Shown one piece after another: positions 23,379 through 54,572 of a DNA stretch of 64,000 bases (position 1 is its first letter; each line of letters opens with the position of its first letter). The stretch comes from Bacteroidales bacterium (GTDB lineage: Bacteria > Bacteroidota > Bacteroidia > Bacteroidales > UBA3824), in NCBI GenBank assembly GCA_017412115.1, contig JAFPYR010000098.1, positions 37,171 to 101,170 on the forward strand. The letters are read 5' to 3'. The position numbers were made by a program, and so were the translations under genes. The notes beneath the pieces were generated by a model, which saw only the letters and a program-made list of their open reading frames with translations, was not told the DNA's origin and ran no database searches.

Positions 23379-23380
23379 TT

Positions 23381-30583: not shown

Positions 30584-30612
30584 AGTTCCGATAACCTCAG
30601 TCTGTAAATTTC

Positions 30613-30805: not shown

Positions 30806-31116
30806 TTTAATTATGATTGGGTTGCGTGGCAGTGAAATTGCCTCTTGTTCTACTTTTTCCACAGGAACTATAAATCCGCCCGGATTTTGAAATTCAATAC
30901 GATTAGTAAAAACCCTTATCGTCGGGTGCATAGGGCTAAACCAATCTGAATGTGCAAGAAAGTTGATCAATCCTTCCCTCAGCGCATACAACCGAGATTC
31001 ATCATCCGGCGAAACTCCCATTTCTGTAGTAGTAAAAGGATTGTCAGCATAAAGTCTAAGCCGTTGAATTATAACATTATAGTATTCCCAAAATTTAAAT
31101 AAAAATTTACTCTAAT

Positions 31117-33907: not shown

Positions 33908-33921
33908 TAGAAATCAATGAT

Positions 33922-34431: not shown

Positions 34432-34435
34432 AATT

Positions 34436-35584: not shown

Positions 35585-36732
35585 CTTTTCCTTTTATAAT
35601 ATGCAACAATTCCTTTGACGGGATTTTTAAAAACGTAATAAAATATTAAAATATCAAATGCTCCAGGGAAAGCAATCCAATCAAGAGACATTCTTATAAA
35701 TACCGCAACAAGAGTAATAAAAATCAAACGGTCTCCTTTCTTAAATGAAACTATTGCAGTTCTTAGCAAAAGGAATATAAATAATAGAAACGGAATCAGA
35801 CCGTATTTAGAGTGAAGAATTAAAAATGAATTATGAATATTACCTTTATAATGAACCAAAAGAGGAAAATCACCAGATTCGTAATTAACTCCTAATACAA
35901 AATTTCTGACATTTAAAAACAAACCTGATAAATATTCAGACCAAATTTCTATTCTGCTGGATTGCATTCCAAATTTTTCATACTTTTCCTTGATATTATT
36001 TGTAAATGAAAAAGTATCATAAACAAAGAAAACAACAAAAAGCAAAACGAAAATTGAACACAAAATAATGATATTGGCTACACTGATTGTTTTTTTATTA
36101 ACCCAATATATTCCCAATGCCAAAAAAAACACAGACAAAAGTCCGGTTCTTGATGTTGACCAAACCACAATTAATCCTATAAACAAAATAGGGAAATAAC
36201 TAAGAGTGTCAGAAATTTTTCTATCAGACTTAAAATAAGAAAAATGTTTTAACCTTTTATGGTGATACGCTAAATAATACAAGATTAGAGAAAGAATACA
36301 TATTGACGAAATATTGTTTTCGCTACCACCATAAATCACGCTTTGAACAGGAACACCGATAATCATATAGACAGCAAAAACACCACCAACAAGATATACC
36401 AAAATCGTTGCGAGTTGTACAGAAATTCCATACCGCAAAAGGACTAAACCAAGTCCCATATAAGACCAAATCCAAAGTAAATTTTGAAAATTCGCATTAT
36501 GATTATAAAGTATTGAAAATGTCATAAACAAAGAAATCACCAATCCGAAAATTAATGAAGTGATCTTTGCAAAAGGTTTAGCGAAATATAAGTAATGAAT
36601 ATAAGCACATAACCCCGGCGCAACCAACAAAGCGTTACGCACAATATCAGGCATATTTATTAAATGAGTAAACAAATACAAGATGCAAAAAACAGCAACC
36701 CATACTTGCGTTTTTATCGAAAAGCTATCCAT
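35581..36732 (-). CDS. Second O-antigen polymerase/ligase-like membrane protein (Wzy_C-like)
   Basis: About 10 TM helices, WSTSRTGLLSVFF, and GNIHNSFLILHSKYGLIPF. 4-nt and 8-nt overlaps with its neighbours. Confidence 0.55.
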   Translation of the reverse strand: MDSFSIKTQVWVAVFCILYLFTHLINMPDIVRNALLVAPGLCAYIHYLYFAKPFAKITSLIFGLVISLFMTFSILYNHNANFQNLLWIWSYMGLGLVLLRYGISVQLATILVYLVGGVFAVYMIIGVPVQSVIYGGSENNISSICILSLILYYLAYHHKRLKHFSYFKSDRKISDTLSYFPILFIGLIVVWSTSRTGLLSVFFLALGIYWVNKKTISVANIIILCSIFVLLFVVFFVYDTFSFTNNIKEKYEKFGMQSSRIEIWSEYLSGLFLNVRNFVLGVNYESGDFPLLVHYKGNIHNSFLILHSKYGLIPFLLFIFLLLRTAIVSFKKGDRLIFITLVAVFIRMSLDWIAFPGAFDILIFYYVFKNPVKGIVAYYKRKR

Positions 36733-38005
36733 TGATTAGTTTTAACTTCAGCGTTCTTTTAACAAGCATTCTCACCAAAAAGAATTGTAAAAACTGTGTT
36801 GCGACATATAATACGCATGTTAACAATAAAGAATAACGTGTTAACCACAAAGACACCAATAAATGCAAAACAGACGAACCGAAGGTTATATACATTATTT
36901 TTTTTGTTTCTTGAAAAAAGAACAAATACGGTGAATATATTAAATAGAAGCACACAAATAAGCCGTAAAAAGAAAGAATATAAAAATACTTAACAGCTGC
37001 CACATATTTTTCAAAAAATAAAGGAATAACAAAAACAACGCACAAAGAAATAAAAATAGCAGCACCAATAAATATCCGATATAAAAAATTTCTTTGCTGT
37101 TTTAACACTGATAATTTTGTGCTTTCACTAATCGTTTTATCACCAAGAGTTTTATATATATCTACGCTAAACGACTGATTGAATCCAAAGCCAACCATCG
37201 TTATTGCACTCGTAAAGGTATAAGCAAAATTGAATAAGCCCACATCCGTTAAATCATAAAATTGCTTAATAATATAAGTATCACCTCCTTGTCTGATAAA
37301 TATAGCACCCAAATGTGGTATCAATGGAATTCCCCACAAAAGCATTTTTTTAAAATACTTGATATCAATACGACTCAGAAAATTTTGTTTTAACAACAAA
37401 ACAATGCCAATCAATCCCACTAATACAGTACAAAAACCTTGAGCATATACTCTGCCTACCCATCCAAAATCTAATAATTGTACAAGTATAACCGTCAATA
37501 TAAAATTAAGTACAGCATTTCCACAACTCAAAATTCCATACCAAAATACATCTGATTTAACACGAAGATAATCTAAATAAAGATTGAAATAGACATTAAA
37601 AAAAGATATTAAAATTCCTATAAACAAAATTTCTAACGGCAAATCAATCCGTACAGAGATAAAACTACCACCAATACCAAGCACTATGCACAACATTGCA
37701 GAAACAAGCAATGAAACCACAATAATACCTGAAAAAACTTGACGGACACCAAACACACCGTCTTTAAAAAAAGCAACAGAAAGATACCCTTCCGTTGACA
37801 TCGCTTGAAAATATCCGACAAGCATTATTACTGTACCAAATACACTCAATAATCCATAATCATACGGAGAAATAAAACGAGCGATTATAAGCAACAGCAA
37901 AAAAAAGAATCCCTTGTTGACAAAAGAAAATAGCGAAAATAAAAGACCATTTCTTAAAGTCGGATTATGAAATGCCGATAATATCTTGCTTAGTAATGAA
38001 TTCAT
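36725..38005 (-). CDS. wzx: Oligosaccharide flippase (Wzx, MOP superfamily)
   Basis: 426 aa with ~12 TM helices. The N-terminus (LRNGLLFSLFSFVNKGFFFLLLLIIARFISPYDYG) is typical of flippases. Confidence 0.75.
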   Translation of the reverse strand: MNSLLSKILSAFHNPTLRNGLLFSLFSFVNKGFFFLLLLIIARFISPYDYGLLSVFGTVIMLVGYFQAMSTEGYLSVAFFKDGVFGVRQVFSGIIVVSLLVSAMLCIVLGIGGSFISVRIDLPLEILFIGILISFFNVYFNLYLDYLRVKSDVFWYGILSCGNAVLNFILTVILVQLLDFGWVGRVYAQGFCTVLVGLIGIVLLLKQNFLSRIDIKYFKKMLLWGIPLIPHLGAIFIRQGGDTYIIKQFYDLTDVGLFNFAYTFTSAITMVGFGFNQSFSVDIYKTLGDKTISESTKLSVLKQQRNFLYRIFIGAAIFISLCVVFVIPLFFEKYVAAVKYFYILSFYGLFVCFYLIYSPYLFFFQETKKIMYITFGSSVLHLLVSLWLTRYSLLLTCVLYVATQFLQFFLVRMLVKRTLKLKLING

Positions 38006-38009: not shown

Positions 38010-39056
38010 TTATTTCAAATGCCTTACCAATTCCTGAGCTCTTTGATATTCCTGAGGATTACCTATATCAATCCACGTACCATTAAGCGGATAACGGATA
38101 ACACTTTTGTTTTCCGAAATCAGTTTTTCTATCAAATCTGTAGCATTAAAAAATTGATTATCAGGAATTTTATTCAACGCTCGACGTTTTATGAGATAAA
38201 TTCCTGCATTAGCATAATAATTATATTGAGGTTTTTCTAATAATCCTTTTATATTACGTCCGTCCAAATCCAAGATTCCGTATGGAATCGAAATATTGTA
38301 AGGTACAGCGGCAACAGACATCTCGGCATCATACTGTTGAAAATGCAAATAAAAATCTTCATAATCAATATTGGTAAACAAGTCACTATTCATTACCAAA
38401 ATTGTATCGTTATAAAAAGACTCTACAAACTTAACACTTCCAATCGTTCCAAGAAATTTTGGCTCACGAAACGTACGAATTTTCACACCGTTACGTAATT
38501 CTTGATAATGCTCTTCTATTTGCTCATGAAGATAATTTACCGTTACACTGATATTCTTAACCCCGTATGAAATCAAACGATCTATATTATGATCAATAAT
38601 ACACTTATCTCCAACTTTGAGCAAAGGTTTTGGCGTTTTTTCAGTCAAAGGACGAAGACGTTCCCCTTTACCACCTGCCATAAGAACAGCATCAAGAGGA
38701 AGTCTTGTTTTATATTTATATAAATCGATAATATCTACAATGTGCATTTTTTCATCAAGCACAGGAACGAGTTTCATTTTCAATTCCTTTTGCTGCTTAA
38801 TTTTTTTCACATCATCAATATCGCTTAATGACAGATAATTAAAATTTCGGTGCATTATCTTTTCCGCTCTGTCAGCTACAGAAACACCAGAAATCAACGC
38901 CCGTCTAGAATCTCCATCAGTAAGAGTTCCAACCATACGATTTTCATCATCAACAACAAAAAGAACCAACGGCTCTGATGGAAAATTGTTAATCTGCGAC
39001 AAAGCCTCCAACAATGTCTTATCCTTACTAATTATATGATTATTACCGTCCAACAT
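38010..39056 (-). CDS. CBS-domain nucleotidyltransferase (PtmE-like sugar-1-phosphate nucleotidyltransferase)
   Basis: N-terminal CBS pair (VVDDENRMVGTLTDGDSRR ... VPVLDEKMHIVDII), followed by the NTP_transferase motif LMAGGKGERLRPLTEKTPKPLL. Confidence 0.8.
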   Translation of the reverse strand: MLDGNNHIISKDKTLLEALSQINNFPSEPLVLFVVDDENRMVGTLTDGDSRRALISGVSVADRAEKIMHRNFNYLSLSDIDDVKKIKQQKELKMKLVPVLDEKMHIVDIIDLYKYKTRLPLDAVLMAGGKGERLRPLTEKTPKPLLKVGDKCIIDHNIDRLISYGVKNISVTVNYLHEQIEEHYQELRNGVKIRTFREPKFLGTIGSVKFVESFYNDTILVMNSDLFTNIDYEDFYLHFQQYDAEMSVAAVPYNISIPYGILDLDGRNIKGLLEKPQYNYYANAGIYLIKRRALNKIPDNQFFNATDLIEKLISENKSVIRYPLNGTWIDIGNPQEYQRAQELVRHLK

Positions 39057-39057
39057 T

Positions 39058-39753
39058 TTAAACCATTTTTTCTTGAATCAACAACTCAGCATATTTCCAA
39101 TCAAGCATAGTATCCAAGTCAACAGAATGAATTTCGCTCATCTCGAAAAAATGTACTTTTTTAAAATCATTAATATGTAAAGCTTTCAAAGACTCAATAT
39201 TAATGACATACACGGCTCCGTTGTATTCATAACACTTTGGAGCCTCTTGACGGCGAGTAATTTTTCCATTGCCTTTTGAAATCACTAAGTTGCCTTCCCC
39301 ATCTTCTTCATAAATATCATAATACGGATTTGAAGCCGCTGATTTAACTGATACAACCATATCACAATCCAAATCAAATTTGTCGATACATCCTATAACA
39401 TCTTCTTTTGTTCTAAAAGGAGATGTTGGTTGCAACAATACTACATTATCATAACGAATACCTTGCTGTTCAAAAAAATTAACAGCATGAAGTATTACTT
39501 CATAACTCCCAGCCGTATCGGATGCCAAATAATCAGGACGTTTAAAAAGTACTTTAAGACCGTATTCTTCCGCTGTTTTGATAATTGTATCGTCATCTGT
39601 TGAAAGGCATATATCCGTATCTTCAACAAATTGGCGAGCAATATCTATCGAATAGTAAATCAACGGTTTACCCGCTAATGGTTTTATATTTTTATGAGGG
39701 ATACCCTTGCTACCTCCTCTGGCGGTTATTAAAAACAAAGATTTCATTGCCAT
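39058..39753 (-). CDS. neuA: Acylneuraminate (nonulosonate) cytidylyltransferase, NeuA/LegF-like
   Basis: ITARGGSKGIPHKNIKPLAGKPLIYYSI ... LLQPTSPFR. Confidence 0.88.
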   Translation of the reverse strand: MAMKSLFLITARGGSKGIPHKNIKPLAGKPLIYYSIDIARQFVEDTDICLSTDDDTIIKTAEEYGLKVLFKRPDYLASDTAGSYEVILHAVNFFEQQGIRYDNVVLLQPTSPFRTKEDVIGCIDKFDLDCDMVVSVKSAASNPYYDIYEEDGEGNLVISKGNGKITRRQEAPKCYEYNGAVYVINIESLKALHINDFKKVHFFEMSEIHSVDLDTMLDWKYAELLIQEKMV

Positions 39754-40748
39754 TATAATTCTATAGGTTCGTCAATCTGATAATCTCTCTTAGCAGGTTT
39801 ATCGGCCACCAAATCCCAAAATTTAGCCGGAATTCCATCAGAACTTCGAAGTAAAGCTATATTCTCGAAACTAATAATTTCACCTTTTTTTATAGGTGTT
39901 TTTGCTATCAAACGTTTCAAAACAACTTCTGCATTTTTTTGTTCTGAAACATTGGGTCGTTTAATTCCATCACCAAAAGCATTTTCAATATTTCTAATTG
40001 AAGTTACCATTTGTTTCAACTCATGCGGCTCTAATGATGCCAAATGATCAGGTCCTTCCATCGTCCGATCAAGAGTAAAATGTTTTTCTATTATTTCCGC
40101 TCCCATTGCAACGGCAGCAATAGGAACTTCAATACCCATTGTATGGTCAGAATAGCCCACTTGACATTTAAAAGCGGCTTTCAACGTTTGCATAGCACGT
40201 AAATTTACCTCACCGTAAGGACACGGATAATTTGTTGTACAATGAAGTAATGCCACTTCTTTTGCACCGCTTTCCAACAATGTATTGTAGGCTTTTTCCA
40301 CGTCAGAAAGCATTGACATGCCGGTAGAAAGAATCACTTTTTTACGTTTACTGCCAATCTGTCGCAAATATGGAATATTAGTAACCTCACCGGAACCTAT
40401 CTTCAAAAAAGGCAAATTCAATGAACATAAATAATCAAGGCTTTCTTTTTCGTCTGGAGTTGACAAAAATTGAATACCGATTTTATCGCAATATGCCTTA
40501 ATTTTATCAAAATCATAATAACTCAATTCTAATGCTTTGAGCATTTCGTATTGACTTTGCGCTGTGCCTGTATTTTCTTTTTGATATGCTGCTTTTGCAG
40601 CACTTCGTGTTACAATATTTTCAGTTTTCCAAGTTTGAAACTTCACAGCATCAACACCAGCTTCTTTGGCTGCATCACAAAGTTTTAATGCCAAATCAAG
40701 TCTACCATTGTGATTGACACCTGCTTCAGCTATAATATATACACTCAT
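39753..40748 (-). CDS. neuB: N-acetylneuraminate/legionaminate synthase, NeuB/LegI family
   Basis: IIAEAGVNHNGRLDLALKLCDAAKEAGVDAVKFQTW ... STPDE ... KIGSGE ... STGMS ... LHCTTNYP ... YSDHT, plus a C-terminal SAF/AFP-like domain. Confidence 0.92.
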   Translation of the reverse strand: MSVYIIAEAGVNHNGRLDLALKLCDAAKEAGVDAVKFQTWKTENIVTRSAAKAAYQKENTGTAQSQYEMLKALELSYYDFDKIKAYCDKIGIQFLSTPDEKESLDYLCSLNLPFLKIGSGEVTNIPYLRQIGSKRKKVILSTGMSMLSDVEKAYNTLLESGAKEVALLHCTTNYPCPYGEVNLRAMQTLKAAFKCQVGYSDHTMGIEVPIAAVAMGAEIIEKHFTLDRTMEGPDHLASLEPHELKQMVTSIRNIENAFGDGIKRPNVSEQKNAEVVLKRLIAKTPIKKGEIISFENIALLRSSDGIPAKFWDLVADKPAKRDYQIDEPIEL

Positions 40749-40751
40749 TCT

Positions 40752-41780
40752 TTAATATTTGTATTTTAACAGAAAATGTTTATAATGCTCAGCCTTTGAC
40801 GGATTATTCAGCTCCCATTCCAAACAAATCTGTTCGTATAAGTTTGAGTTAAAAATCAATTTTCCCAAACAAAACTGACGAGTACTATTTGAAAAACGAC
40901 TTTTAAAACAAAATAGGGTGTCATCTTCTGAAGATGTAGTACCACCGCCCAGATGAAATGTTTTAACGCCGCGGCGTTTCAATTCAAGAGCAGCATGCCA
41001 AAGCATAAAATTATTGGGGGATAATTTCAACGCACTGACATCACTACCAGCCAAATGATAATGTCCGTATTCGCCTTCATACATAAAAATAGCCGCAGAA
41101 ACGACTTTACCTTCGTATAGAACCACTCCCAAAAAACTATCAGGAAGTGACTTTTTAAATTGTTGATAATAAGACTGCTTAAAATAATAAAAATCGGAAG
41201 CGTCTAATTTATCCATCGTAGCATTATAAAGCCGGATAAAATCATCTAAATAATTATAATCATTATCTACGACAAATTTAAGACCGCTTTTTTCACCCTT
41301 CTTTATGACATTACGATTTTTAGTGTGAATTTCCTTCATCCAAATTTCGTTCTCCTCCAAAGCAAGGTTTATAGCAACAGTTTTTCGGTCTTCAACAACC
41401 CGTCCTATATTGAATTGTTTATAATTGTCTAACAAAGGGTGAAACCTTACAAAACCAGCAACATAATTGTTATTTTTTAAGGTCTCTGACATCAAGAGCA
41501 AAGCCTCTGACTTAAAATCGTCATCAGCATTGTTCCATATCGGTCCGCCATAACCATACGCTGTCTCAAAATCCAAAAGAGTATGTTCTTGATATTCAAA
41601 AGTACGGCTAAGAAACGGGAATAACATTTTACTATCACCTTTTTCTACTATACAACAGACCGCTTTTTCTGTTTCGGTTTCATACAATCTGAGGTATTCT
41701 TCTTTAAAATAAATATCCCGATTTTTAGGCGAAAAATTATTTAGTATATGATTCCAACTTTCAGAAATATGTATATTCAT
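40752..41780 (-). CDS. FemAB-fold / Acetyltransf_6-like GNAT protein
   Basis: 342 aa. The duplicated-GNAT layout and the C-terminal FHLGGGTTSSEDDTLFCFKSRFS resemble FemAB-family / BioF2-like acyltransferases. Assignment by eye only. Confidence 0.5.
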   Translation of the reverse strand: MNIHISESWNHILNNFSPKNRDIYFKEEYLRLYETETEKAVCCIVEKGDSKMLFPFLSRTFEYQEHTLLDFETAYGYGGPIWNNADDDFKSEALLLMSETLKNNNYVAGFVRFHPLLDNYKQFNIGRVVEDRKTVAINLALEENEIWMKEIHTKNRNVIKKGEKSGLKFVVDNDYNYLDDFIRLYNATMDKLDASDFYYFKQSYYQQFKKSLPDSFLGVVLYEGKVVSAAIFMYEGEYGHYHLAGSDVSALKLSPNNFMLWHAALELKRRGVKTFHLGGGTTSSEDDTLFCFKSRFSNSTRQFCLGKLIFNSNLYEQICLEWELNNPSKAEHYKHFLLKYKY

Positions 41781-41781
41781 A

Positions 41782-42819
41782 TTAAATACTATCTTCTAAA
41801 ACATTAAGAATACGTTTCATATCACTTTCTGTATATCGTTGGTCAATTATGATAGATAATTCATGAACCGATAAATCTATACCACGTTTTAATTCCAACT
41901 TGAACCTATCTTCGACCGGCCAATGTACAGGTAAAAAAATATTGTTGGCAAACATTGCCTTACGAACTCTATCACGATTATCTATTCTAATTGGAACAAA
42001 TAAAGGAACTGCTGTTTTCTGTAAAGGAATAATAGGAACAATTCCTAACTTTTTTAAACCATCAACTATTACTTCCGCATTATGCCTTCTTAACTTAGCA
42101 TAAACTTGCCAATCCATGTCGGAAAGAATTTCTTTTGACAATGTTGTCATATCAGTCTGATAGTCATCATCGATTTTAACCTCTCCTTTATGAAACAAAT
42201 CCAAATAAATTTCATCACAAAACAACCGATGCGCTCTTAACGACTTCAAATAAGATGCCGCAATCTTATATTGTGCGAAATCATTTATTTTGTTTGGTTG
42301 GCATAACATTCCTTTTTTAGAAATCACCCAAGCACCATCTGAAACAGGAAAAGCCTTACGAAAACTGGAAAAAACAAAATCAGCATCATTATCATCTGTC
42401 ATAGCATACGGTGCTTGAACATTATCTAATATAATAATCATATCCCGATTAATAGCCCGAAGATGATTAATTATAACATTATAATCTATCAAACCAAAAT
42501 AATTAATCAGAATTACTGCCTTAGAAGTATCATAACATGACTCTAATGCATTAAAATCGGGACTAAGTTGTTCATCAAGAGCATAAAATTCTATTTTCAA
42601 CTGATTTTTATAAGCCATCTGATATACAGATTCGCACAAATAATCAGGGAAAAGTATAGTAGTTATACCCAAATGCGCTTTAACAAAAGTGAGAATATTA
42701 TAAAGTGCGGAACGCCCTGAAGAAAAAGTAACAACATTTGTAGGCAAATGATGTATATTTTCATAATGTTGTTTTACTTCTATTTCAAACTCGCCACCTA
42801 TTATTTTTGTTTCAGCCAT
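41782..42819 (-). CDS. DegT-like PLP-dependent enzyme (second aminotransferase-like gene of module A)
   Basis: SSGRSALYNIL ... LFPDYLCESV ... ILDNVQA ... FSSFRKAFPVSDGAWV (putative PLP-Lys). Divergent from the LegC-like gene. Confidence 0.5.
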   Translation of the reverse strand: MAETKIIGGEFEIEVKQHYENIHHLPTNVVTFSSGRSALYNILTFVKAHLGITTILFPDYLCESVYQMAYKNQLKIEFYALDEQLSPDFNALESCYDTSKAVILINYFGLIDYNVIINHLRAINRDMIIILDNVQAPYAMTDDNDADFVFSSFRKAFPVSDGAWVISKKGMLCQPNKINDFAQYKIAASYLKSLRAHRLFCDEIYLDLFHKGEVKIDDDYQTDMTTLSKEILSDMDWQVYAKLRRHNAEVIVDGLKKLGIVPIIPLQKTAVPLFVPIRIDNRDRVRKAMFANNIFLPVHWPVEDRFKLELKRGIDLSVHELSIIIDQRYTESDMKRILNVLEDSI

Positions 42820-43916
42820 TCTTTAATTTTTGCAACAATTAAATTAGAAGTATGACCGTTGCCATAATATGTATCTATTATTTTGGACTGAGATAACATC
42901 TTTTGAAAAGCCAAAGCGATTGAAGTATTATCCCGATCACACTGAATAACATTCTTACAAAGATGTCTACCTTTTTGTCTTTCTCCAATATTTACAACAG
43001 GTATCCCTAAAAAAGGTGCTTCAACAATGCCGCTGGATGAATTTCCGATTATACCCGCAGATTGTTGCATAAAACTCAAATAACGACGTTGACCTAATGA
43101 GGAGAACAAATGAAACTTATCAGTATCTGACTTAACGGCTTCTTCCCAAAACTCATTTATCTGCATTCCGCCAAAATCAGCATTTGCCTTACTTATTACA
43201 AATTGAACATTTTCAGTTTTTTTCATCACATCAAAAAGATGATGAACCATTTTCAAATTATCATCAAGACTTAATTTCGTTTCAGAATGAAGAGTTACCA
43301 AGCACCAACGTTTACTTTCATCAAGTCCGATATTACTTGCAATTTCATTTCTAGTCATTAAGTCATATCGTAGAAAACTTTCAAGTCCAGGTTCTCCCGC
43401 AATAAAAATATTAGTGTCAGAATTAAGCATCCTTTTAAGATTTTCAGCAGAGCTTTCAACGCCTGGAAAATGAAGAGTAGACATCATAGATACAGCATTG
43501 CGCACTTCATTATCTATTGCACCTTCAGTAACATCACCACCAGAAATATGCGCTACTGGAATACCCATCACCAAAGCGGCACTTACTATGGGAAGTAATT
43601 CATATCTATCGCCTAATACAACAACAACATCTGACATCAATTTGAAATATACTTTTGCAAATCCCTCGGAACATTTTCCCATAGAACATACAATATCAGA
43701 TTTATTATCTGACCTCAACTGCATATCCACTTTTGCAGCAATAGGATACCCATCTTCTTCGATGAACCGATATGTCAACCCCTGCTCAAAAGAAAGATGA
43801 GCACCAGTTACTACTAATTGAAGTTCTAATTCAGGATCGTGATAAACAGAATCTATCACCCATCGTAATAATCCATACTCAGAACGAGCAGCTGTAACAA
43901 TACAAACTTTTTTCAT
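42801..43916 (-). CDS. neuC: UDP-N-acetylglucosamine 2-epimerase (hydrolysing), NeuC/LegG-like
   Basis: KVCIVTAARSEYGLLRWVI ... VVLGDRYELL ... HISGGDVTEGAIDN ... HFPG ... GNSSSGIVEAP. Confidence 0.88.
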   Translation of the reverse strand: MKKVCIVTAARSEYGLLRWVIDSVYHDPELELQLVVTGAHLSFEQGLTYRFIEEDGYPIAAKVDMQLRSDNKSDIVCSMGKCSEGFAKVYFKLMSDVVVVLGDRYELLPIVSAALVMGIPVAHISGGDVTEGAIDNEVRNAVSMMSTLHFPGVESSAENLKRMLNSDTNIFIAGEPGLESFLRYDLMTRNEIASNIGLDESKRWCLVTLHSETKLSLDDNLKMVHHLFDVMKKTENVQFVISKANADFGGMQINEFWEEAVKSDTDKFHLFSSLGQRRYLSFMQQSAGIIGNSSSGIVEAPFLGIPVVNIGERQKGRHLCKNVIQCDRDNTSIALAFQKMLSQSKIIDTYYGNGHTSNLIVAKIKEWLKQK

Positions 43917-45535
43917 TAATCAATATTATCAAAAGCCGTTTTCATCCATTCAAGACGATTTATAAGCCACATTTTCAAATATGAAACCTCATTTTGATAA
44001 CTACCCAACACATCACGATTAACATACGGCAAAAATTCATTCATTGTATGCCACCTATTTTCATTTTCTTCTACAGAATATTTTAGATAACTAACATAAG
44101 AATTTATTTTTTTCAAAATATCATTTTTTCTGCTATAAAAATAATAAAATCTTTCTTTGGCTTTATTACGAAAAATAGGATCCTCAAAAAGACGCATCAA
44201 CCATTTATTATTATATATTTGAAACAAAAAGCCATCAGTAGGATACAATGGTGTTGCATTATTATTACCTAATGACTGATCAAAATCCCACAAAGGTCCC
44301 ATTTTAAGTATACCATCGCGCTTATAGTTCATATAACAACTTGTGTACATACTCATTGCATCACCGTTCTTACATATTTCATTTATAAGAAACCAATCTA
44401 CAAACGATTCCAAATCCATATACGATTACCACCCATTTTCAGGATTTGTAAAATTGTCAGAAAAAAGTACTTCTTCTGCCTTCAAAACATACTGCTTAAT
44501 AAAATTATAATTATCGTCACCTACAACAACATCAGGATCTTTTATATTAATAGGCTGTGTAAGCATATTAGTTTCAAAATAAGGAGCATTCTCACTTATA
44601 GCTCTTTGATCAACCTCCAACAAAAAACCATCCTTACCAACATTCACACGATTTTCAGCTATTTTTAATTTATCTCCAAGCATATACGTTCCATGATATT
44701 TCCCATTTAACATCAATTCTACAAAATGGAAATGAGGTGTGTAATCAAGATTACTTATCATCCCCATATAATATGCGATAATATTACGAACCATGGCTTT
44801 ATCAAAATAATTAGCAATCAAAACCCATGATTTATCTTTAGGTTCATTCAGCAAAGAAATTTTTTGATCAAATTTTAAGGTATAAGATTTTTTAGGAGAT
44901 GATGAATATGAAGAATTTCCTCTACATTTTATTTGCACTTTTGTATTTAATTTTTCTTCAGAACTTTGAGTTAATTCATTTTCCATCAGTTGGAAATTAG
45001 CATTAACATATTCCTCTTTAGATGTTATATCAACCCTTTCATCGGTTTCAATCCATAAAATTGGTAAACCAGTAAATGTGCGCACATAAATGACATATTT
45101 TTTTTCTATACCATGCTCATCAAAGACCGACAAAATAACAGGAGTATTAAAATTAATATAATTAGAATTTTGATTTTCCGTATCGTAAACAACACTATTT
45201 GAATCCCAAACTATTTTTTCTCCTTTATATTCAATACATGGTATTAAATTTTTATTATCTACTATATAAGGAATACGAAATTCAATTATACTATCACCTA
45301 TTATAGTACCATACACGTCTTCAATCAGAACATCAGGATTTTCGTCTGACTTGAACGAAGCATTCAATACCTTCGGACCTAATATTTTAGTATCTTCAAT
45401 TATGTAAATAGATTCAGACTTTTTACAAGAAGATAAAATAAAACACAAAAAAAGTGTATAAAATATAATAATTCTTTTTTTATACATAGAAACTAAAATT
45501 ATGCTAAGCAGGAGTAAAGGAGAAGATTGAGTCAT
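43916..45535 (-). pseudogene. CotH-like kinase-fold lipoprotein gene interrupted by a single in-frame TAA
   Basis: ORFs 44426-45535 and 43916-44419 are in the same frame, separated only by TAA (44426-44428) plus two codons: ...NPENGW * SY MDLESFVDWFLINE.... CotH hallmarks span both halves (KKSYTLKF ... WVLIANYFDKAMVRN ... FVELMLNGKYHGTYML // FVDWFLINEICKNGD ... GPLWDFDQSLG). A lipoprotein signal (FILSSC) appears if the start is at 45487. Confidence 0.75.
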
Positions 45536-45541
45536 AAAAAC

Positions 45542-45979
45542 TTAATTCTCTGCAAACAATTCTTTGATTTCCTCAGATACCAAAGTACTTTTTCGTATTC
45601 CGTTTGCAATTATTTTCAGACCATATTCGTCAATAAAACCTGATAGAAGCTTTACTTTGCCGGATTTCAATAATTTGGCAAAATCTATATCATCAATTTC
45701 AATCACATTGTTGCAATCGATATATGTCTGAGGTTTTTTGAACTCATTTTTATTATCCGCCAAAAACACAGGATAAGTGCTTGTATCGAAACCGTTCAAT
45801 TCAGCAAGCCTTAGCGCAGTATTTATTTGCGACGAACACGTGGAAAAAAATAGTAACTTGTTGTTGCGCTTAATGCATACGTGAATATGTTCTTTTATAC
45901 CAATCGGACAATTTGCATAAAAGAAATAGAGTGCACCTTCCGTAATGCTCTGAGACAAAAGTGTTTCGGGCAGTTCCAT
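45542..45979 (-). CDS. Hypothetical 145-aa protein; candidate toxin partner of the Panacea-domain protein
   Basis: Start overlaps the upstream stop by 1 nt (TGATG). No signal peptide or TM helix. No family recognised (MELPETLLSQSITEGALYFFYANCPIGIKEHIHVCIKRNN...). Confidence 0.55.
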   Translation of the reverse strand: MELPETLLSQSITEGALYFFYANCPIGIKEHIHVCIKRNNKLLFFSTCSSQINTALRLAELNGFDTSTYPVFLADNKNEFKKPQTYIDCNNVIEIDDIDFAKLLKSGKVKLLSGFIDEYGLKIIANGIRKSTLVSEEIKELFAEN

Positions 45980-46557
45980 CAGCGGTTGTATTGGTGATAA
46001 AGTTCTTTTGAAAGGTTTACTATTTCAGGATTTTCATTCTGAAACAATCCTGTCGGGTCGTCATTGCAACCGTCAAAAAAACGGTCAATGTCAATTTTGT
46101 ACGAGTTTTTGAGGTTTGTGTCTCGCAACATTGGCTCGTAAAATGTCCATTCAGGAAACTTGTGCGAAATTTCTGACAAATCCTGACCTGATAAATTTTT
46201 GCACCTTTCTATAACCCTGTCCAATACTTCTGTATCTGTTTGCGAAAACTTTTTTGTGTCGGGTTCGCTGATTGCACTATATTTATGGTTTTCAGTAGGA
46301 CGGATATACATTTCGAAATAATTGTTATCCGTCTTCAACCGTGTCTTTTTTCCTTCCAAAAGATTTTTGGCATCGGTGGGCACTACACCTTTGGGCATAG
46401 CATAATAAACGTCGCCGCTTATAGTGCGTCCGTACCGCCGCAGATGGCAACGGTCAGAAAGCCAAAGAATTTTATAGGCTTTTATATTGTCTATTGTCCT
46501 ATCAGGCTGTTTAGAAGCGATATACGTCAAAGCCTGAATTATTTTTGTAGTGTCCAT
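45979..46557 (-). CDS. Panacea (DUF4065) / SocA-like antitoxin-domain protein
   Basis: KAYKILWLSDRCHLRRYGRTISGDVYYAMPKGVVP and LSGQDLSEISHKFPEW match the DUF4065 pattern (K-l-KLLY ... G-pi-g ... a-GPV ... LS--sH----W). Confidence 0.7.
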   Translation of the reverse strand: MDTTKIIQALTYIASKQPDRTIDNIKAYKILWLSDRCHLRRYGRTISGDVYYAMPKGVVPTDAKNLLEGKKTRLKTDNNYFEMYIRPTENHKYSAISEPDTKKFSQTDTEVLDRVIERCKNLSGQDLSEISHKFPEWTFYEPMLRDTNLKNSYKIDIDRFFDGCNDDPTGLFQNENPEIVNLSKELYHQYNR

Positions 46558-46573
46558 CGCAAATTATTTTTTG

Positions 46574-46581
46574 CAAAAATA
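46574..46581 (-). promoter_or_regulatory. Bacteroidetes-type -7 box (TATTTTTG) for the Panacea pair
   Basis: A perfect TAnnTTTG on the minus strand, 16 nt upstream of the ATG at 46557, inside the 52-bp gap after legC. Confidence 0.45.
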
Positions 46582-46609
46582 GGAAAATAATACTCAACTT
46601 ATTGAGCAA

Positions 46610-47764
46610 TTAACTTTTTTTAACCCTTACGCTACTCGGTATGTTAACCACTCTGTCGGCGAAGTAAATCGTATTTTCCAAACCGTCGTTTTGACAATGC
46701 TCAAACATTGGCAGACGATTCATCAGTTCCCAAATTGGACGAGTCATTACGCCATTGTCGTTGCTGAATTGCAGAAAATCTTGCTGCATATCCTTGTCTT
46801 TCAAGATGATTGCATTGAGCCAATAATTACTGCGACAATCATCGGGTTCGCTGAAAAACTTGATATCAGGAACATTCTTGAAAAACTCCTTGTATGCCTC
46901 TGCCGTTTGTCGCTTGCTTTCGATGTAAGAGTCGATGTTTTCCAACTGTGCGCAGCCGAGGGCGGCATTGATGTTTGGCATACGGTAATTGTAGCCGATA
47001 TGGTCGTGGCGGAACTCCCAACGGTGCGGAATCTTTGCCTGAGTTGTGATGTGCTTGGCATACGCACCGAGTTTTTCGTCATTGAAAAGCATCATTCCGC
47101 CGCCGCCAGTAGTGATAGTCTTGTTGCCATTGAAACTCAACGCTCCAATCTTGCCGAATGTGCCTGTGTGTTTGCCCTTGTAAAGACTTCCAATGCTCTC
47201 GGCGGCATCTTCCACGAGTTCGATATGGTATTCGTTGCAGACCTCAACCAATTCGTCCAAATGGACGGGATGACCAAAAGTATGCATCGGGACACACGCT
47301 TTTACGCGACGATGTGTATTCTTGTTAAAACATTGATTGTCTTTGATTTCGGCGTTCTTTTCGAGCCAATTTCTTACTGCCGCCGGCGAAAGTCCCATCG
47401 TGTCCCTGTCAACATCAATGAAGACGGGAACAGCACCGATGTAACTCAAAGCGTTGCAGGTTGCAATAAAAGTCAGGGCTTGTGTCAACACTTCGTCGCC
47501 GCGCTCCACGCCCGCCAACATCAGCGAAATATGCAGTGCATTAGTGCCGCTCACGCATACAACCGCCCTCTTGCAGCCTGTAAACTTTGCAATGTCTTCT
47601 TCAAATCTGTCAACGAACTTGCCGACACTCGACACAAAAGTAGTGTCGATACATTCGTTGAGATATTTTTTCTCGTTACCCGCAAACACAGGCACCGACA
47701 GCGGGATGAAGTCGCCGCCGCCATACCATTCACGGATAAAGTCAGTTATTTTTTTGAATTCCAT
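46610..47764 (-). CDS. legC: LegC-family aminotransferase (UDP-4-amino-4,6-dideoxy-HexNAc transaminase)
   Basis: FIPLSVPVFAGNEKKYLNECIDTTFVSSVGKFVDRFEEDIAKFTG ... ALTFIATCNA ... ALSFNGNKTITTGGGGM. Confidence 0.85.
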   Translation of the reverse strand: MEFKKITDFIREWYGGGDFIPLSVPVFAGNEKKYLNECIDTTFVSSVGKFVDRFEEDIAKFTGCKRAVVCVSGTNALHISLMLAGVERGDEVLTQALTFIATCNALSYIGAVPVFIDVDRDTMGLSPAAVRNWLEKNAEIKDNQCFNKNTHRRVKACVPMHTFGHPVHLDELVEVCNEYHIELVEDAAESIGSLYKGKHTGTFGKIGALSFNGNKTITTGGGGMMLFNDEKLGAYAKHITTQAKIPHRWEFRHDHIGYNYRMPNINAALGCAQLENIDSYIESKRQTAEAYKEFFKNVPDIKFFSEPDDCRSNYWLNAIILKDKDMQQDFLQFSNDNGVMTRPIWELMNRLPMFEHCQNDGLENTIYFADRVVNIPSSVRVKKS

Positions 47765-47766
47765 TT

Positions 47767-48975
47767 TTACATTTTTTGGTCGAGGTTCTTACCCTTTTCT
47801 TCGTGTTGGAAATTGGGAATGAACCCTTTTATTGCGTCAACAACCTGACCTTTGGTAAAATCGGGTTTGCTGAAAATGTTTTCTAATTCTGTGAAGAAAC
47901 TGTTGATTTCGTTCATTGGACGGCGTGTGGTCTGTTCCACGACACCAAGTGCCGAAAACCTCTGCATATTGATTTTTTCGCCCGGCACAAAAAACTCCTC
48001 GTAAGCCTTTTCGCCAGTGGTGTCGCTTTTGAAATATACCACAGGGTATTTGTCGGAATCGTATGACATTTGGTCTGCATATTCCTTGGCAGCGTTATCA
48101 TTCTGACATTCAACCTTTTGAAATCCTTGTGCCTTTACGAAGTCATCGCAAACCGTTGAGAAAGTTAGCATTTGGTCTTCGCCGAGTTTTGGGAAGAAAA
48201 CCTCGCCGCCTTTGCCGAGAATACAAGCCAACATACATATCTGACCGCTTTCTTCGGGCGAAACGAAATATCTTTTTACGTCGTTTGGCGCAGCGAGAGG
48301 CTGTTTTTTCTGCAAACGGTGAATCCAACCGTCAGGCAGCGAACCATTGGAGAAAGCAACGTTGGCAAATCTTGCCGTAGTTACCTTGAAATGAACGTTG
48401 TATGCCATCACCAAATCTTCCATAATCCTTTTGCTTGCGCCCATAATGTTGACGGGGTTTGCAGCCTTGTCGGTGGAAACACAGAAAAAATGTTTCGGCG
48501 GATACACACAAAGCAAATCCATCAGTTTCTTCGCCTTGATGTCGTTGTTTTCGATAAGAGCCTGAACGGAGTATTTGTCTTTTTCGCTTCTGACGTGTTT
48601 GTGCGCCGAAAAATTGGCAACAATGTCAAAACCCTTCTCCTCTCTGAAAATCCTCTCGAAAATCGGGTCGGCAAAATTCAGAGTGTAACACCTAAATTCG
48701 TCGGGACAAAACAGCCCCAGTGTAGAACGCACATCCCTGACAAGTTCCGCCAAGCCGTTTTCGTTCAAATCGACAACGACCATACTTTGTGGTTCAAACC
48801 TCAGTACCGCCTTTATAAAAGACGATCCGATAGAACCTGCACCACCGATAACGCAGACTTTTTTGTCTTTGATTTCTCGGCTCAAAGCATCTTTATTAGC
48901 CTCAATATCAGGCAAAAACATACTTTCAGGACGGAAAGTAACGCTATCAGAAATGAATTTGTTAAGGTTGAACAT
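47767..48975 (-). CDS. NDP-sugar 4,6-dehydratase (CapD/PglF/LegB-like, soluble form)
   Basis: Rossmann motif VCVIGGAGSIGSSF ... FSAHKHVRSE ... STDKAANPVNIMGASKR. Start set at the first ATG (MFNLNKF); the tracked ORF starts at a TTG 21 nt upstream. Confidence 0.8.
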   Translation of the reverse strand: MFNLNKFISDSVTFRPESMFLPDIEANKDALSREIKDKKVCVIGGAGSIGSSFIKAVLRFEPQSMVVVDLNENGLAELVRDVRSTLGLFCPDEFRCYTLNFADPIFERIFREEKGFDIVANFSAHKHVRSEKDKYSVQALIENNDIKAKKLMDLLCVYPPKHFFCVSTDKAANPVNIMGASKRIMEDLVMAYNVHFKVTTARFANVAFSNGSLPDGWIHRLQKKQPLAAPNDVKRYFVSPEESGQICMLACILGKGGEVFFPKLGEDQMLTFSTVCDDFVKAQGFQKVECQNDNAAKEYADQMSYDSDKYPVVYFKSDTTGEKAYEEFFVPGEKINMQRFSALGVVEQTTRRPMNEINSFFTELENIFSKPDFTKGQVVDAIKGFIPNFQHEEKGKNLDQKM

Positions 48976-49084
48976 AAAATCACAATCAATTTGCAATAAA
49001 GCAAACTATTATAAAATAATGGATTAATAAAACTATTTTATGATAAAAATATTATTAACTAATGCTTTTACTTTCGTATCCACA

Positions 49085-53847: not shown

Positions 53848-53882
53848 AATTTTTATTAAAAACCTTTGTTTTAAAAAAGTTA

Positions 53883-54449: not shown

Positions 54450-54572
54450 AATAGTTTAAGAGTTGTTTTTGCTTTTGCAAATATAAAATATATTTTTCGG
54501 TAATCACAACAAGTTTTCAATTTTTTTTTGAAAAAAACTGAAATTTATTGCAGCAATCTGATTTTGACCGTT

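Follow-up and report, generated by a model that had tools for sequence, protein, structure and literature searches.

The genes at 38010-48996 of the 64,000-nucleotide stretch analysed here (the window) all lie on the minus strand and are tightly packed, with spacings of -19 to +52 nt, which indicates that they form one operon. The assembly genes at 32603-38005 belong to the same operon (spacings of -8 to +14 nt). Every gene listed for 38-49 kb in the initial annotation was recovered in its place and on the minus strand from open reading frames and from Pfam and NCBIfam searches. In order of transcription the features are as follows.

47767-48996, minus strand: PglF/CapD-like soluble NDP-GlcNAc 4,6-dehydratase, Lea1 orthologue (Pfam Polysacc_synt_2, E 5e-36)
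46610-47764, minus strand: LegC-family PLP aminotransferase, Lea2 orthologue (TIGR04181, 564 bits, cut-off 420)
45979-46557, minus strand: SocA/Panacea-domain antitoxin (PF13274, E 1.2e-24)
45542-45979, minus strand: 145-aa partner ORF of the antitoxin, overlapping the antitoxin gene by 1 nt
43916-45535, minus strand: CotH-like lipoprotein gene (CotH profile, Pfam)
42801-43916, minus strand: NeuC/LegG-type hydrolysing NDP-sugar 2-epimerase, Lea5 orthologue (TIGR03568, 378 bits, cut-off 236)
41782-42819, minus strand: P8, a divergent DegT-fold PLP protein of an unnamed family (profile, hhalign and AlphaFold model)
40752-41780, minus strand: Fem-like protein, a FemX-fold (tandem GNAT) transferase, Lea3 orthologue (Acetyltransf_6, 47.7 bits; FemAB, 36.7 bits)
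39753-40748, minus strand: NeuB/LegI-type nonulosonate synthase, Lea4 orthologue (TIGR03569, 472 bits, cut-off 400)
39058-39753, minus strand: NeuA/LegF-type CMP-nonulosonate synthetase, Lea7 orthologue (CTP_transf_3, E 1.8e-17)
38010-39056, minus strand: PtmE-like CBS and sugar-1-phosphate nucleotidyltransferase, Lea6 orthologue (NTP_transferase, E 3.5e-37, and a CBS domain)
36725-38005, minus strand: Wzx flippase (Pfam, NCBIfam)
35581-36732, minus strand: Wzy_C protein (Pfam, NCBIfam)
34436-35584, minus strand: 382-aa protein, candidate Leg transferase
33922-34431, minus strand: LbH O-acetyltransferase-like protein (Pfam, NCBIfam)
32603-33907, minus strand: second Wzy_C protein (Pfam, NCBIfam)

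The eight pathway ORFs are intact and of full length against their homologues, and base composition is mosaic, with a GC content of 43-47% in the dehydratase and LegC genes and 28-36% in the remainder. The description of the dehydratase as soluble and CapD/PglF-like holds: it gives only weak scores against the PseB and FnlA models of NCBIfam, and no hydrophobic or transmembrane segment was found in it. Its translation probably begins with the ATG at 48975, which would yield a protein of 402 aa, the length seen in homologues. The NeuA protein scores 135 bits against the PseF model of NCBIfam, under the cut-off of that model, and the NeuC and P8 genes overlap by 19 nt.

Two insertions outside the sugar pathway separate LegC from NeuC. 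The two-gene cassette at 45542-46557 is missing from the orthologous modules compared, and its 145-aa partner ORF has zero matches in Pfam, NCBIfam, PADLOC and the PDB; lying where it does, the cassette could have polar effects. The CotH-like gene, which has an N-terminal signal/lipobox-like sequence and a GC content of 28%, is present as initially annotated but is not one intact ORF: a single in-frame TAA at 44426-44428 divides it into ORFs 44426-45535 and 43916-44419, which match positions 1-111 and 168-322 of the Pfam CotH profile.

The reported lack of a PglD/NeuD-type N-acetyltransferase at 38-49 kb was borne out by each search. Pfam and NCBIfam reveal no PglD/NeuD/PseH-type enzyme in the 38010-48996 operon, the antisense ORFs of 38-49 kb have no Pfam match, and small GNATs of related loci used as tblastn queries retrieve nothing from the whole window. 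The whole window encodes two LbH proteins only. That at 33922-34431 resembles WbbJ, WcaF and maltose O-acetyltransferase and scores 40.9 bits against the NeuD/PglB model (cut-off 160.8); that at 21490-21954, 17 kb off, is FdtC/QdtC-like and adjoins FdtA and a DegT gene.

The sole candidate for acyl transfer in the module is the Fem-like protein, in agreement with its initial placement at the acylation step. Both of its Pfam scores exceed the cut-offs, and its profile matches FemX (4ii9) with E 7e-8. When its AF2 model (pLDDT 90.7) is compared with the PDB, FemX, Sbb17/Sba18 and MprF domains rank first (E 1e-14 to 1e-9), and the best 28 folds are aminoacyl-tRNA-dependent transferases, bar two chains of 2hqy. 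The latter is one unannotated Bacteroides protein. Sbb17/Sba18 catalyse aminoacyl-tRNA-dependent aminoacylation of the amino sugar of streptothrisamine. F292-K293 of the Fem-like protein aligns with F304-K305 of FemX, of which Lys305 is the catalytic residue (PMC12945691), and K293 is invariant among 48 Fem-like homologues. The enzyme is probably tRNA-dependent, and its amino-acid specificity is probably alanyl by likeness to Lea3. NCBI labels many family members 'GNAT family N-acetyltransferase', and JGI labels one homologue 'UDP-N-acetylbacillosamine alanyltransferase'.

The Fem-like gene lies beside NeuB, NeuC and NeuA in all 45 related loci tallied, which span Bacteroidota, Firmicutes, Spirochaetota, Nitrospirota and Proteobacteria including SAR11; a PtmE-like gene is present in 42 of the 45. 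The seven-gene modules of Phocaeicola plebeius and Morganella have the Fem-like protein as their only acyltransferase, and loci with a genuine small GNAT still keep the Fem-like gene. An orthologous cluster with a chemically defined product is that of Escherichia coli O161, whose O-antigen contains Leg5NAc7N(D-alanyl), i.e. Leg5Ac7(D-alanyl) (PMC10609480, PMC7685785), and whose Fem-like gene has been named Lea3 and proposed to encode an "alanyltransferase" (PMC7685785). This cluster includes a P8 orthologue and no small GNAT, and it supports the initial suggestion of an aminoacylated product. The initial annotation did not cite this chemical precedent and assigned no function to the second PLP enzyme.

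That second enzyme, P8, is encoded directly upstream of the Fem-like gene. The earlier designation 'DegT-like' is not callable from Pfam, and P8 has no Pfam or NCBIfam match; a profile of the P8 family against the PDB, hhalign and the AlphaFold (AF2) model nevertheless agree on it. The profile retrieves sugar aminotransferases (best E 1.9e-5), the model (pLDDT 91.8) is closest to WbpE, DesV, ArnB and PseC, and alignment with LegC places K155 at the Schiff-base Lys and D132 at the PLP Asp. Residues G35, R36, C62, D132, S152, R154 and K155 are invariant across 32 P8 sequences, those of E. coli O161 and Aliivibrio wodanis among them. P8 is found in 27 of the 45 loci, it adjoins the Fem-like, NeuC or NeuB gene in every ORF map examined, and a NeuC-P8 fusion protein exists. 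Its absence from the other 18 loci, including the module of the closest Fem relative examined (83% identity), indicates that P8 is not needed for Fem function. The small GNAT is almost confined to P8-bearing loci (10/27 vs 1/18, Fisher p 0.03, for loci that are not phylogenetically independent). P8 is proposed to work with the Fem-like enzyme in tailoring the sugar, as an L-to-D aminoacyl epimerase that would convert L-alanyl to D-alanyl. This role is suggested by the one chemically defined D-alanyl product, that of E. coli O161, together with the chemical reasoning that tRNA carries L-alanine. The Vibrio alanyl product is reportedly of D configuration.

Taken together, it is fairly probable that the module encodes a 'lea-type' CMP-legionaminic acid pathway that places an amino acid rather than acetyl on N7, the Fem-like enzyme, together with P8, probably standing in for the usual acetyltransferase. 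The PtmE-like enzyme would provide an NDP-hexosamine, with either GDP or UDP as its nucleotide (step 1), which the PglF-like dehydratase and LegC would convert to NDP-4-amino-4,6-dideoxy-GlcNAc (step 2); the 4-amino group of the LegC product becomes N7 of the nonulosonate. The FemX-fold enzyme would then move an aminoacyl group, most probably alanyl by analogy with E. coli O161, from aminoacyl-tRNA onto this amine (step 3), and P8 would modify the new alpha-amino-acyl group, by the proposed epimerisation at C-alpha (step 4). NeuC would strip the nucleotide and epimerise C2 (step 5), NeuB would join the product with PEP (step 6), and NeuA would yield the CMP-sugar for a Wzx/Wzy-dependent capsule or O-antigen (step 7). 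Homology to curated families argues for steps 1, 2, 5, 6 and 7; fold, the conserved catalytic residue, synteny and the correlation of genes with structures in other species point to step 3; step 4 is inferred, as is the sequence in which steps 3-5 take place. The Fem-like enzyme and P8 may act on the NDP-sugar, the free hexose or the nonulosonate. The most likely product is CMP-Leg5Ac7(alanyl) with a free amine. Because the window has no small GNAT of the kind that caps the alanyl amine in relatives, the sugar expected is Leg5Ac7(D-Ala), its amine left free and bearing a positive charge, as in E. coli O161.

The Fem-like protein shares only 31-33% identity with Lea3 and the A. wodanis homologue, so the amino acid could differ. 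An unlikely alternative builds on this: a tRNA-dependent Fem-like enzyme would attach a different amino acid, such as Gly or Ser, and P8 as a transaminase or eliminase would form a 2-oxoacyl group; subsequent reduction to a glycolyl, lactoyl or glyceroyl group would give an N7-hydroxyacyl legionaminic acid. The DegT fold, whose usual chemistry is transamination, accords with it, as does a GFO_IDH_MocA oxidoreductase downstream of the module in some P8-containing loci, and N-glycolyl and N-glyceroyl nonulosonates are known from Bacteroidota (Tannerella). However, the window module has no reductase by Pfam, the PLP-stacking aromatic of aminotransferases aligns with an invariant P8 residue, Cys or Leu, and two clusters argue that the amine stays in place: it is intact on D-alanyl in E. 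coli O161, which has a P8 orthologue, and it is kept in the N-acetylated alanyl made by the V. vulnificus CMCP6 cluster, similar to the P8-bearing cluster of A. wodanis.

A tandem GNAT using acetyl-CoA, replacing LegH/PglD non-orthologously and making Leg5Ac7Ac with P8 unrelated or vestigial, is a distinctly doubtful reading. The Acetyltransf_6 match, described as a GNAT domain, the labels of many homologues and the many modules in which the Fem-like protein is the only acyltransferase, where LegH would be needed, are consistent with it, and the fold search also retrieves acetyl-CoA tandem GNATs (about E 1e-7). Aminoacyl-tRNA-dependent enzymes nevertheless win that search by 5-7 orders of magnitude, every homologue compared keeps the catalytic Lys of FemX, the acetyl-CoA P-loop signature of GNATs is absent from 48/48 Fem-like proteins (vs present in 8/10 neighbouring small GNATs), the Fem-like gene persists alongside genuine small GNATs, and the orthologous O161 cluster puts D-alanyl, not acetyl, at N7. 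That the pathway is decaying or inactive, with the ancestral small GNAT lost and no mature nonulosonate made, is very improbable: foreign genes at the LegC-NeuC junction (exactly where 10 of the 45 loci have a small GNAT), the in-frame stop in CotH and the GC mosaic would fit, but the pathway ORFs are intact, operon-like spacing persists, junction insertions are common in otherwise intact modules, and many loci lack the small GNAT, including that of sugar-making E. coli O161.

The aminoacyl pathway favoured here is of a known kind and not unprecedented; what remains novel is P8, a large unnamed PLP family. The E. coli O161 cluster has orthologues of all eight pathway genes, with identities of 41% for the dehydratase, 54% for LegC (the same as for A. 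wodanis LegC), 57% for NeuB, 37% for NeuA, 32% for the PtmE-like enzyme and 31% over the full length of the Fem-like protein (E 2e-38). For E. coli O108, which makes plain 8eLeg5Ac7Ac, the acetyltransferase Elg5 is listed and an alanyltransferase is not. The A. wodanis/V. vulnificus CMCP6-type cluster has the pathway genes of the module, Fem-like and P8 included, plus an extra small GNAT; V. vulnificus CMCP6, whose cluster is similar to that of A. wodanis, produces Leg5Ac7AcAla, in which the alanyl group is N-acetylated (PMC7371886).

The legionaminic-acid-type (Leg) nonulosonate module is enclosed by a 40-kb minus-strand polysaccharide region having a T9SS plug protein, DUF4422 and DUF4143 ATPases on its flanks. 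The gaps between successive ORFs from 48996 down to 38010 range from -19 to +52 nt, indicating a single operon. Pfam and NCBIfam family scans bear out the gene list of the initial annotation, including its two insertions between LegC and NeuC, and the operon comprises the following features.

Start probably at the ATG at 48975, minus strand: Polysacc_synt_2 dehydratase of 402 aa, without a membrane segment (family scan)
Minus strand: LegC-family aminotransferase (TIGR04181, 564 bits against a cut-off of 420)
Between LegC and NeuC: SocA/Panacea-domain protein and its 145-aa partner
43916-45535, minus strand: CotH-like lipoprotein gene
Minus strand: NeuC-type hydrolysing 2-epimerase (378 bits against a cut-off of 236)
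41782-42819, minus strand: divergent DegT-fold PLP protein, called P8 here
40752-41780, minus strand: FemX-fold protein, called the Fem-like protein here
Minus strand: NeuB-type synthase (472 bits against a cut-off of 400)
Minus strand: CTP_transf_3 cytidylyltransferase (Pfam family scan)
Minus strand: PtmE-type protein with CBS and NTP_transferase domains (Pfam family scan)

The 145-aa partner of the Panacea protein has no match in Pfam, NCBIfam, PADLOC or the PDB. The CotH-like gene, at 28% GC the lowest within the module, is a single frame that appears as two ORFs because one in-frame TAA at 44426-44428 (...ENGW*SYMDLE...) splits it; it is either a fresh pseudogene or expressed in two pieces. 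The LegC/NeuC junction (43916-46609 in the window) is an insertion site that recurs across loci. At the locus of P0002, a relative 83% identical to the Fem-like protein, the junction (5853-8770 of L060) holds an AAA_21 ATPase, small ORFs and a PIN_12/PIN_8 protein; further cases are the LegC/NeuC gaps of loci L015, L027, L030, L036 and L040, and loci other than L060 hold 2-5 kb of unrelated genes at this point. The small GNAT, an extra short acetyltransferase of some related loci, occupies the junction in 10 of the 45 non-redundant loci with adequate flanks that were tallied, the window and separately fetched loci included. The GC content of the dehydratase and LegC genes (46610-48996) is 43-47%, against 28-36% for all other genes of the module, which suggests that the 5' end of the operon was separately acquired or exchanged and that the locus is a mosaic.

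Several features of the surrounding region were observed in the same scans. A second polysaccharide gene set lies downstream of the module (10194-29832, minus strand), so that the window holds two Wzx and two Wzy_C genes. This set includes an FdtA-like isomerase, an LbH N-acetyltransferase and a DegT protein, which make up a 3-acetamido-3,6-dideoxyhexose pathway, together with a Bac_transf initiating transferase, an MBOAT and AlgX-like pair, a second flippase, a UDP-galactopyranose mutase, a GT11 fucosyltransferase-like protein and several GT2s. An Acyl_transf_3 gene (19344-20376, minus strand) looks split: the match of 19771-20376 is confined to positions 4-191 of the 326-position profile, and next comes an overlapping 176-aa ORF without a family match. 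The gene is probably frameshifted. Amid the polysaccharide region, an AAA_14/DUF4143 ATPase (30299-32427, minus strand) scores E 2e-170 against PDC-S01, a candidate defence family in PADLOC, and lies with a Fic-like_C/HATPase_c_4 protein, and a truncated second AAA_14 copy of 186 aa lies at 13177-13737 (minus strand). What looks like a partner-switching signalling module, made up of a SiaC-family phosphoprotein, a DUF6272 protein and a TPR and SpoIIE (PP2C) phosphatase, is found at 53467-56363 (minus strand), some 4.5 kb upstream of the capsule operon.

The initial annotation had reported no PglD/NeuD-type LbH N-acetyltransferase between 38 and 49 kb. When all ORFs of 80 aa or longer in this interval, on either strand, are scanned with Pfam and NCBIfam, no LbH or GNAT acetyltransferase signature appears, and tblastn of the window with ten small GNATs from related loci detects no homologue. 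The acetyltransferase scan also took in most of the larger ORFs of the window, where the LbH proteins number two, at 33922-34431 and 21490-21954 (169 and 154 aa). These score 40.9 and 107.8 bits where TIGR03570 (NeuD/PglB/VioB) requires 160.8, and the N-terminal nucleotide-sugar-binding domain is missing from both; the missing-acetyltransferase observation is therefore confirmed. Neither protein is acceptable as a dedicated LegH: 33922-34431 groups with O-acetyltransferases (WbbJ, WcaF and maltose O-acetyltransferase-like), and 21490-21954, which has FdtA and a DegT gene as neighbours, is part of a 3-amino-sugar pathway of the FdtA/FdtB type. Cross-talk of the two proteins into the Leg pathway is possible.

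The Fem-like protein exceeds the Pfam cut-offs of both Acetyltransf_6 and FemAB. Its score against PF02388 is 36.7 bits (cut-off 24), with the best matched stretch covering only residues 226-302, and in NCBIfam it reaches 32.7 bits with the FemX model (cut-off 500) and 54.8 bits with the PEP-CTERM FemAB model (cut-off 260), far short of both. A profile of 24 homologues searched against the PDB finds Weissella FemX (E 7e-8), and the AlphaFold (AF2) model, with a pLDDT of 90.7, has a tandem GNAT fold. The top Foldseek matches of the model (E 1e-14 to 1e-9) are FemX Wv, S. aureus FemX/FemA, Sbb17/Sba18, which are aminoacyl-tRNA-dependent peptide synthases whose PDB entries contain the bound amino-sugar compound streptothrisamine, and MprF domains, which are aminoacyl-phosphatidylglycerol synthase domains; tandem GNATs that use acetyl-CoA enter the list only from about 1e-7.

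Residues F292-K293 of the Fem-like protein align with F304-K305 of FemX. Lys305 is the catalytic residue of FemX, and DhpH-C has an essential equivalent lysine (PMC12945691). K293 is the same in all of 48 Fem-like homologues drawn from six phyla, and F292 is conserved in 90% or more of them. The acetyl-CoA loop, scored as G[KRQ]Gx[GAS] (the stricter [QR]xxGx[GA] missed even control GNATs), is found in none of these 48 proteins versus 8 of 10 neighbouring small GNATs. The fold ranking, the missing acetyl-CoA signature and the D-alanyl product of E. coli O161 lead to the proposal that the predicted acyl donor of the Fem-like protein is an aminoacyl-tRNA. One homologue is named "UDP-N-acetylbacillosamine alanyltransferase" by JGI. 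Full-text literature searches returned nothing relevant linking FemAB or aminoacyl-tRNA to nonulosonic or legionaminic acid, and no report of a biochemical test of the O161 protein Lea3 or any homologue; a 2026 review of aminoacyl-tRNA-dependent natural-product enzymes does not mention nonulosonic acids (PMC12945691).

The module belongs to the "lea" type of E. coli O161, here in a Bacteroidales host, and is not categorically new. A search of E. coli genomes with the window DNA matched neuB in seven strains, at a locus between galF and gnd (NZ_CP195454.1, 1794010-1802288) whose wzx and wzy are annotated "O161 family". The gene order there is dehydratase, LegC-family aminotransferase, FemA/FemB protein, neuB, neuC, "hypothetical protein", nucleotidyltransferase and cytidylyltransferase, the third being annotated as [quoted passage not shown]. 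The O161 genes have been assigned as Lea1-Lea7 for the synthesis of CMP-Leg5Ac7Ala, with Lea3 as "alanyltransferase", whereas the list for E. coli O108, which makes 8eLeg5Ac7Ac, has the acetyltransferase Elg5 instead of an alanyltransferase (PMC7685785). The Lea assignment, as cited there from Li et al. 2010, is bioinformatic and concerns one E. coli serogroup (PMC7685785). The O161 repeat is ->8)-alpha-Legp5NAc7NR-(2->4)-beta-D-GlcpA-(1->3)-beta-D-GlcpNAc-(1->, in which R is D-alanyl (PMC10609480). Full-length alignment of the window Fem-like protein with Lea3 gives 31% identity (E 2e-38), and in pairwise BLASTP all pathway proteins of the window match both O161 and Aliivibrio wodanis proteins full-length at 24-57% identity. 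The orthology of the window genes to the lea genes, the naming of Lea3 and the D-alanyl group of the O161 sugar lend good support to the aminoacylated 5,7-diamino nonulosonate that had been predicted at the outset.

The "hypothetical protein" of O161 (11161-12120 of L057, the O161 locus; NZ_CP195454.1, about 1799536-1800495) is a P8 homologue, 47% identical to the A. wodanis protein, and its start is mis-called in RefSeq. The RefSeq protein of 263 aa begins at an internal ATG, and the frame is open for about 56 codons further upstream; as its alignment with the A. wodanis protein begins at residue 1 of the latter (LGGEQEL...), translation starts at a codon other than ATG. The sequence is identical across all seven O161 genomes and carries no functional name in the PMC7685785 list. 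A blastn search for further E. coli serogroups with Fem-like or P8-like genes, such as O123 with its D-alanyl-Qui4N, matched only the seven O161 genomes, by a method blind to distant homologues.

The Fem-like family comprises 3,442 clusters at 90% identity (E ≤ 1e-5), with thousands of homologues in gut and rumen Bacteroidales. A scan limited to one genome per species gives 49 loci, whose hosts include, on the Bacteroidota side, Bacteroidales, Prevotellaceae, Muribaculaceae, Odoribacter, Parabacteroides and Prolixibacteraceae, and elsewhere Lachnospiraceae and other Clostridia, Treponemataceae, Nitrospirota, Wallbacteria, Aeromonadales, Rhodospirillaceae, Desulfarculaceae and Pelagibacter. In all 45 tallied loci, from at least six phyla, the Fem-like gene occurs with NeuB, NeuC and NeuA; a PtmE-like gene is present in 42 and LegC in 40. 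In Phocaeicola plebeius and Morganella morganii the module is a bare set of seven genes, and the Fem-like protein is the sole possible acyltransferase. Bacteroides hominis has the eight-gene module, with the small GNAT at its locus as well. P8 is present in 27 of the 45 loci and the small GNAT in 11, of which 10 also have P8 (Fisher p = 0.03, with loci counted regardless of kinship). Eight P8-poor loci (L034, L037, L039, L040, L046, L049, L050 and L051, mostly Firmicutes, Nitrospirota and alpha-proteobacteria) have a SAM-dependent methyltransferase of ~220 aa (Methyltransf_11/25) directly after the Fem-like gene, which could N-methylate the aminoacyl group as another tailoring variant. A Shewanella-like contig (L064, 5659-17008) carries the nine genes of the A. 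wodanis cluster, including Fem, P8 and small GNAT, in a flagellar glycosylation island, with the flagellar genes FlgT and FlgO to one side and an MptE/Maf-like protein to the other; its aminoacyl-Leg is probably a flagellin glycan and not a capsule sugar.

P8 has no match in Pfam or NCBIfam. PF01041 is not matched at E ≤ 0.01 by P8 of the window or by its E. coli and A. wodanis homologues, and it is carried by 1 of 120 P8 homologues among those listed. A 38-sequence P8 profile searched against the PDB reaches sugar aminotransferases (best E 1.9e-5). Alignment with LegC by hhalign extends over 285 columns (E 7e-5) and places K155 on the Schiff-base lysine K215 of LegC, D132 on D186, the PLP (pyridine-nitrogen) aspartate, and "SGR" on the "SGT" phosphate loop; K155 and D132 are invariant in 32 sequences. 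The P8 model (pLDDT 91.8) is matched by Foldseek to WbpE, DesV, ArnB and PseC and, less specifically, to NifS/IscS. These results make P8 a fold-type I PLP protein of DegT descent, as the initial annotation had proposed. It lacks the PLP-stacking aromatic residue ("TF" of PxxTFxAT), the position being occupied by L61 or C62 in alignments that differ by one residue; C62 is invariant in the 32 sequences. The family comprises 1,593 clusters at 50% identity (E ≤ 1e-30) and includes two domain fusions, NeuC (Epimerase_2) with P8 (P0459, 728 aa) and B12-binding radical SAM with TPR and P8 (P0429, 864 aa), the latter hinting at further chemistry on the same substrate.

The module of P0002, the closest relative of the Fem-like protein with a neighbourhood examined, has no P8, indicating that P8 is dispensable for the Fem step. 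A transaminase role for P8 fits poorly, because the amine is retained in the O161 product and, N-acetylated, in that of V. vulnificus CMCP6. P8 is proposed instead as the most economical source of the D configuration, namely as a PLP enzyme that works on the residue just attached, through its free alpha-amine, and this epimerase role is put forward tentatively. It is proposed because the alanine of O161 is D, tRNA delivers L-alanine, and no recognisable amino-acid-activating enzyme is encoded in the clusters examined, and because P8 is the sole unassigned PLP protein and is found in both O161 and Aliivibrio/Vibrio-type systems. According to McDonald et al., the alanine is reportedly also D in V. 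vulnificus. Speculatively, if C62 lies on the PLP face opposite K155, it could provide the second base for an epimerase of the two-base kind.

The A. wodanis cluster has the order dehydratase-LegC-Fem-NeuB-NeuC-P8-small GNAT-PtmE-NeuA. It is described as similar to the cluster of V. vulnificus CMCP6, a producer of Leg5Ac7AcAla (McDonald et al. 2018, as cited in PMC7371886), and A. wodanis yields a quinoxaline mass matching Leg5Ac7AcAla (PMC7371886). Of lea-type clusters, just two have a known 7-N-alanyl Leg product, those of E. coli O161 (PMC10609480) and V. vulnificus CMCP6 (PMC7371886). Across these systems Fem alone or Fem with P8 goes with free-amine alanyl (O161), and when the small GNAT joins Fem and P8 the group is N-acetyl-alanyl (Vibrio/Aliivibrio type). 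The best reading of the small GNAT is thus a capping enzyme for the alanyl amine and not an equivalent of LegH.

The window module has Fem and P8, with neither small GNAT nor methyltransferase. Its product would be CMP-Leg5Ac7(D-alanyl) or a related D-aminoacyl form having a free amine. That N7 carries an aminoacyl and not an acetyl group is probable, and the chance that the amino acid is alanine is about even. The Fem-like protein and P8 may act on the nucleotide-linked amino sugar, with the aminoacyl group supplied from tRNA and then epimerised at its alpha-carbon. The carrier nucleotide may be UDP or GDP: the dehydratase is PglF-like, yet a PtmE-like enzyme is conserved. An unannotated protein of 382 aa at 34436-35584 is a candidate for the transferase of the sugar. 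A joint reading, possible though doubtful, is that P8 represents an unnamed DegT-derived family of L-to-D aminoacyl epimerases in a modular tailoring cassette with a doubly charged product. Fem-like and P8, with or without small GNAT or methyltransferase, would then form a modular "aminoacyl-sugar tailoring" unit, and this cassette would be widespread in gut Bacteroidales, Lachnospiraceae, vibrios and SAR11. If this is true, P8 would explain amide-linked D-alanine, and perhaps other D-amino acids, on surface sugars without a dedicated D-amino-acid activation system.

In capsules, O-antigens and flagellin glycans, nonulosonic acids are found at the very tip, and their N-acyl groups set antigenicity, phage and lectin recognition, and charge. 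Since the Fem-like gene lies beside NeuB and NeuC in every tallied locus and has its thousands of Bacteroidales homologues, aminoacyl-Leg may be a common commensal surface sugar. A free alanyl amine near the Leg carboxylate would give a zwitterionic motif bearing positive and negative charge. Zwitterionic motifs in Bacteroides capsules are linked to immunomodulation, and we infer such a link for this locus. The Fem/P8 pair offers a direct handle on the attachment of D-amino acids to bacterial amino sugars, and would constitute tRNA-dependent chemistry in the biosynthesis of a glycan and not of peptidoglycan or an antibiotic. What these results contribute is the gut and marine spread of the lea-type solution and a testable hypothesis for its conserved, unnamed PLP partner.

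The predicted route of the window follows the Leg pathway of C. jejuni and T. forsythia in its logic: 4,6-dehydration and C4 transamination come first, N-acylation and hydrolysing 2-epimerisation follow, and PEP condensation and CMP activation complete it. For N-acylation those species use an LbH acetyltransferase, where the window has a FemX-fold protein; the window also has the extra PLP protein. The T. forsythia cluster is rejected as a precedent: it uses a PglD-like enzyme and is thus not the same solution. The window dehydratase is of the Polysacc_synt_2 type, as opposed to the LegB-like BFO_1074 of T. forsythia; LegB is of a different, GDP-mannose-dehydratase-like type. BFO_1074 is 62% identical to C. 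jejuni LegB, and a PtmE-like enzyme is present in the window as in the C. jejuni/T. forsythia pathway (PMC5378307).

FemX of Weissella viridescens (UDP-MurNAc-pentapeptide:L-alanine transferase, PDB 1NE9/4II9) shares the tandem-GNAT fold of the Fem-like protein (TM about 0.7), a basic segment that aligns with its "SKTKSKIKR", and the catalytic Lys305 with the preceding Phe, and its acceptor is likewise a soluble nucleotide-linked amine. The two differ in sequence (about 14% identity in the structural alignment) and in acceptor, which is a peptide lysine for FemX and is proposed to be an NDP-amino sugar for the Fem-like protein. Orf11/Sba18 and Sbb17 (PDB 9WQX/9WQY) carry out Gly-tRNA-dependent aminoacylation of the amino sugar of streptothrisamine in streptothricin-type pathways (PMC12945691). 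They resemble the proposed Fem-like role in having the FemX fold and transferring an amino acid from aminoacyl-tRNA onto a sugar amine, but they belong to Streptomyces secondary metabolism and not to surface glycans, and phmmer and hmmsearch detect no sequence similarity between them and the Fem-like protein. P8 has in common with the DegT/DnrJ/EryC1/StrS aminotransferases (WbpE, DesV, PseC, LegC) the fold-type I architecture, Schiff-base Lys, PLP Asp and "SG(T/R)xAL" loop; it differs in being about 25-40 residues shorter, in lacking a PF01041 match, and in co-occurring with a Fem-like gene in loci where the keto-sugar dehydratase is already served by LegC.

The A. wodanis/CMCP6-type nab cluster shares with the window the Fem-like, P8-like, NeuB, NeuC, LegC, dehydratase, PtmE-like and NeuA genes; the A. 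wodanis type has in addition a 161-aa GNAT beside P8, fitting an N-acetylated alanyl group, whereas the window has no homologue of it. The window and O161 have in common eight gene families, the absence of LbH and small GNAT, and wzx/wzy genes afterwards. They differ in host phylum, in the two foreign insertions of the window, and in gene order, which is Fem-NeuB-NeuC-P8 in O161 and NeuC-P8-Fem-NeuB in the window.
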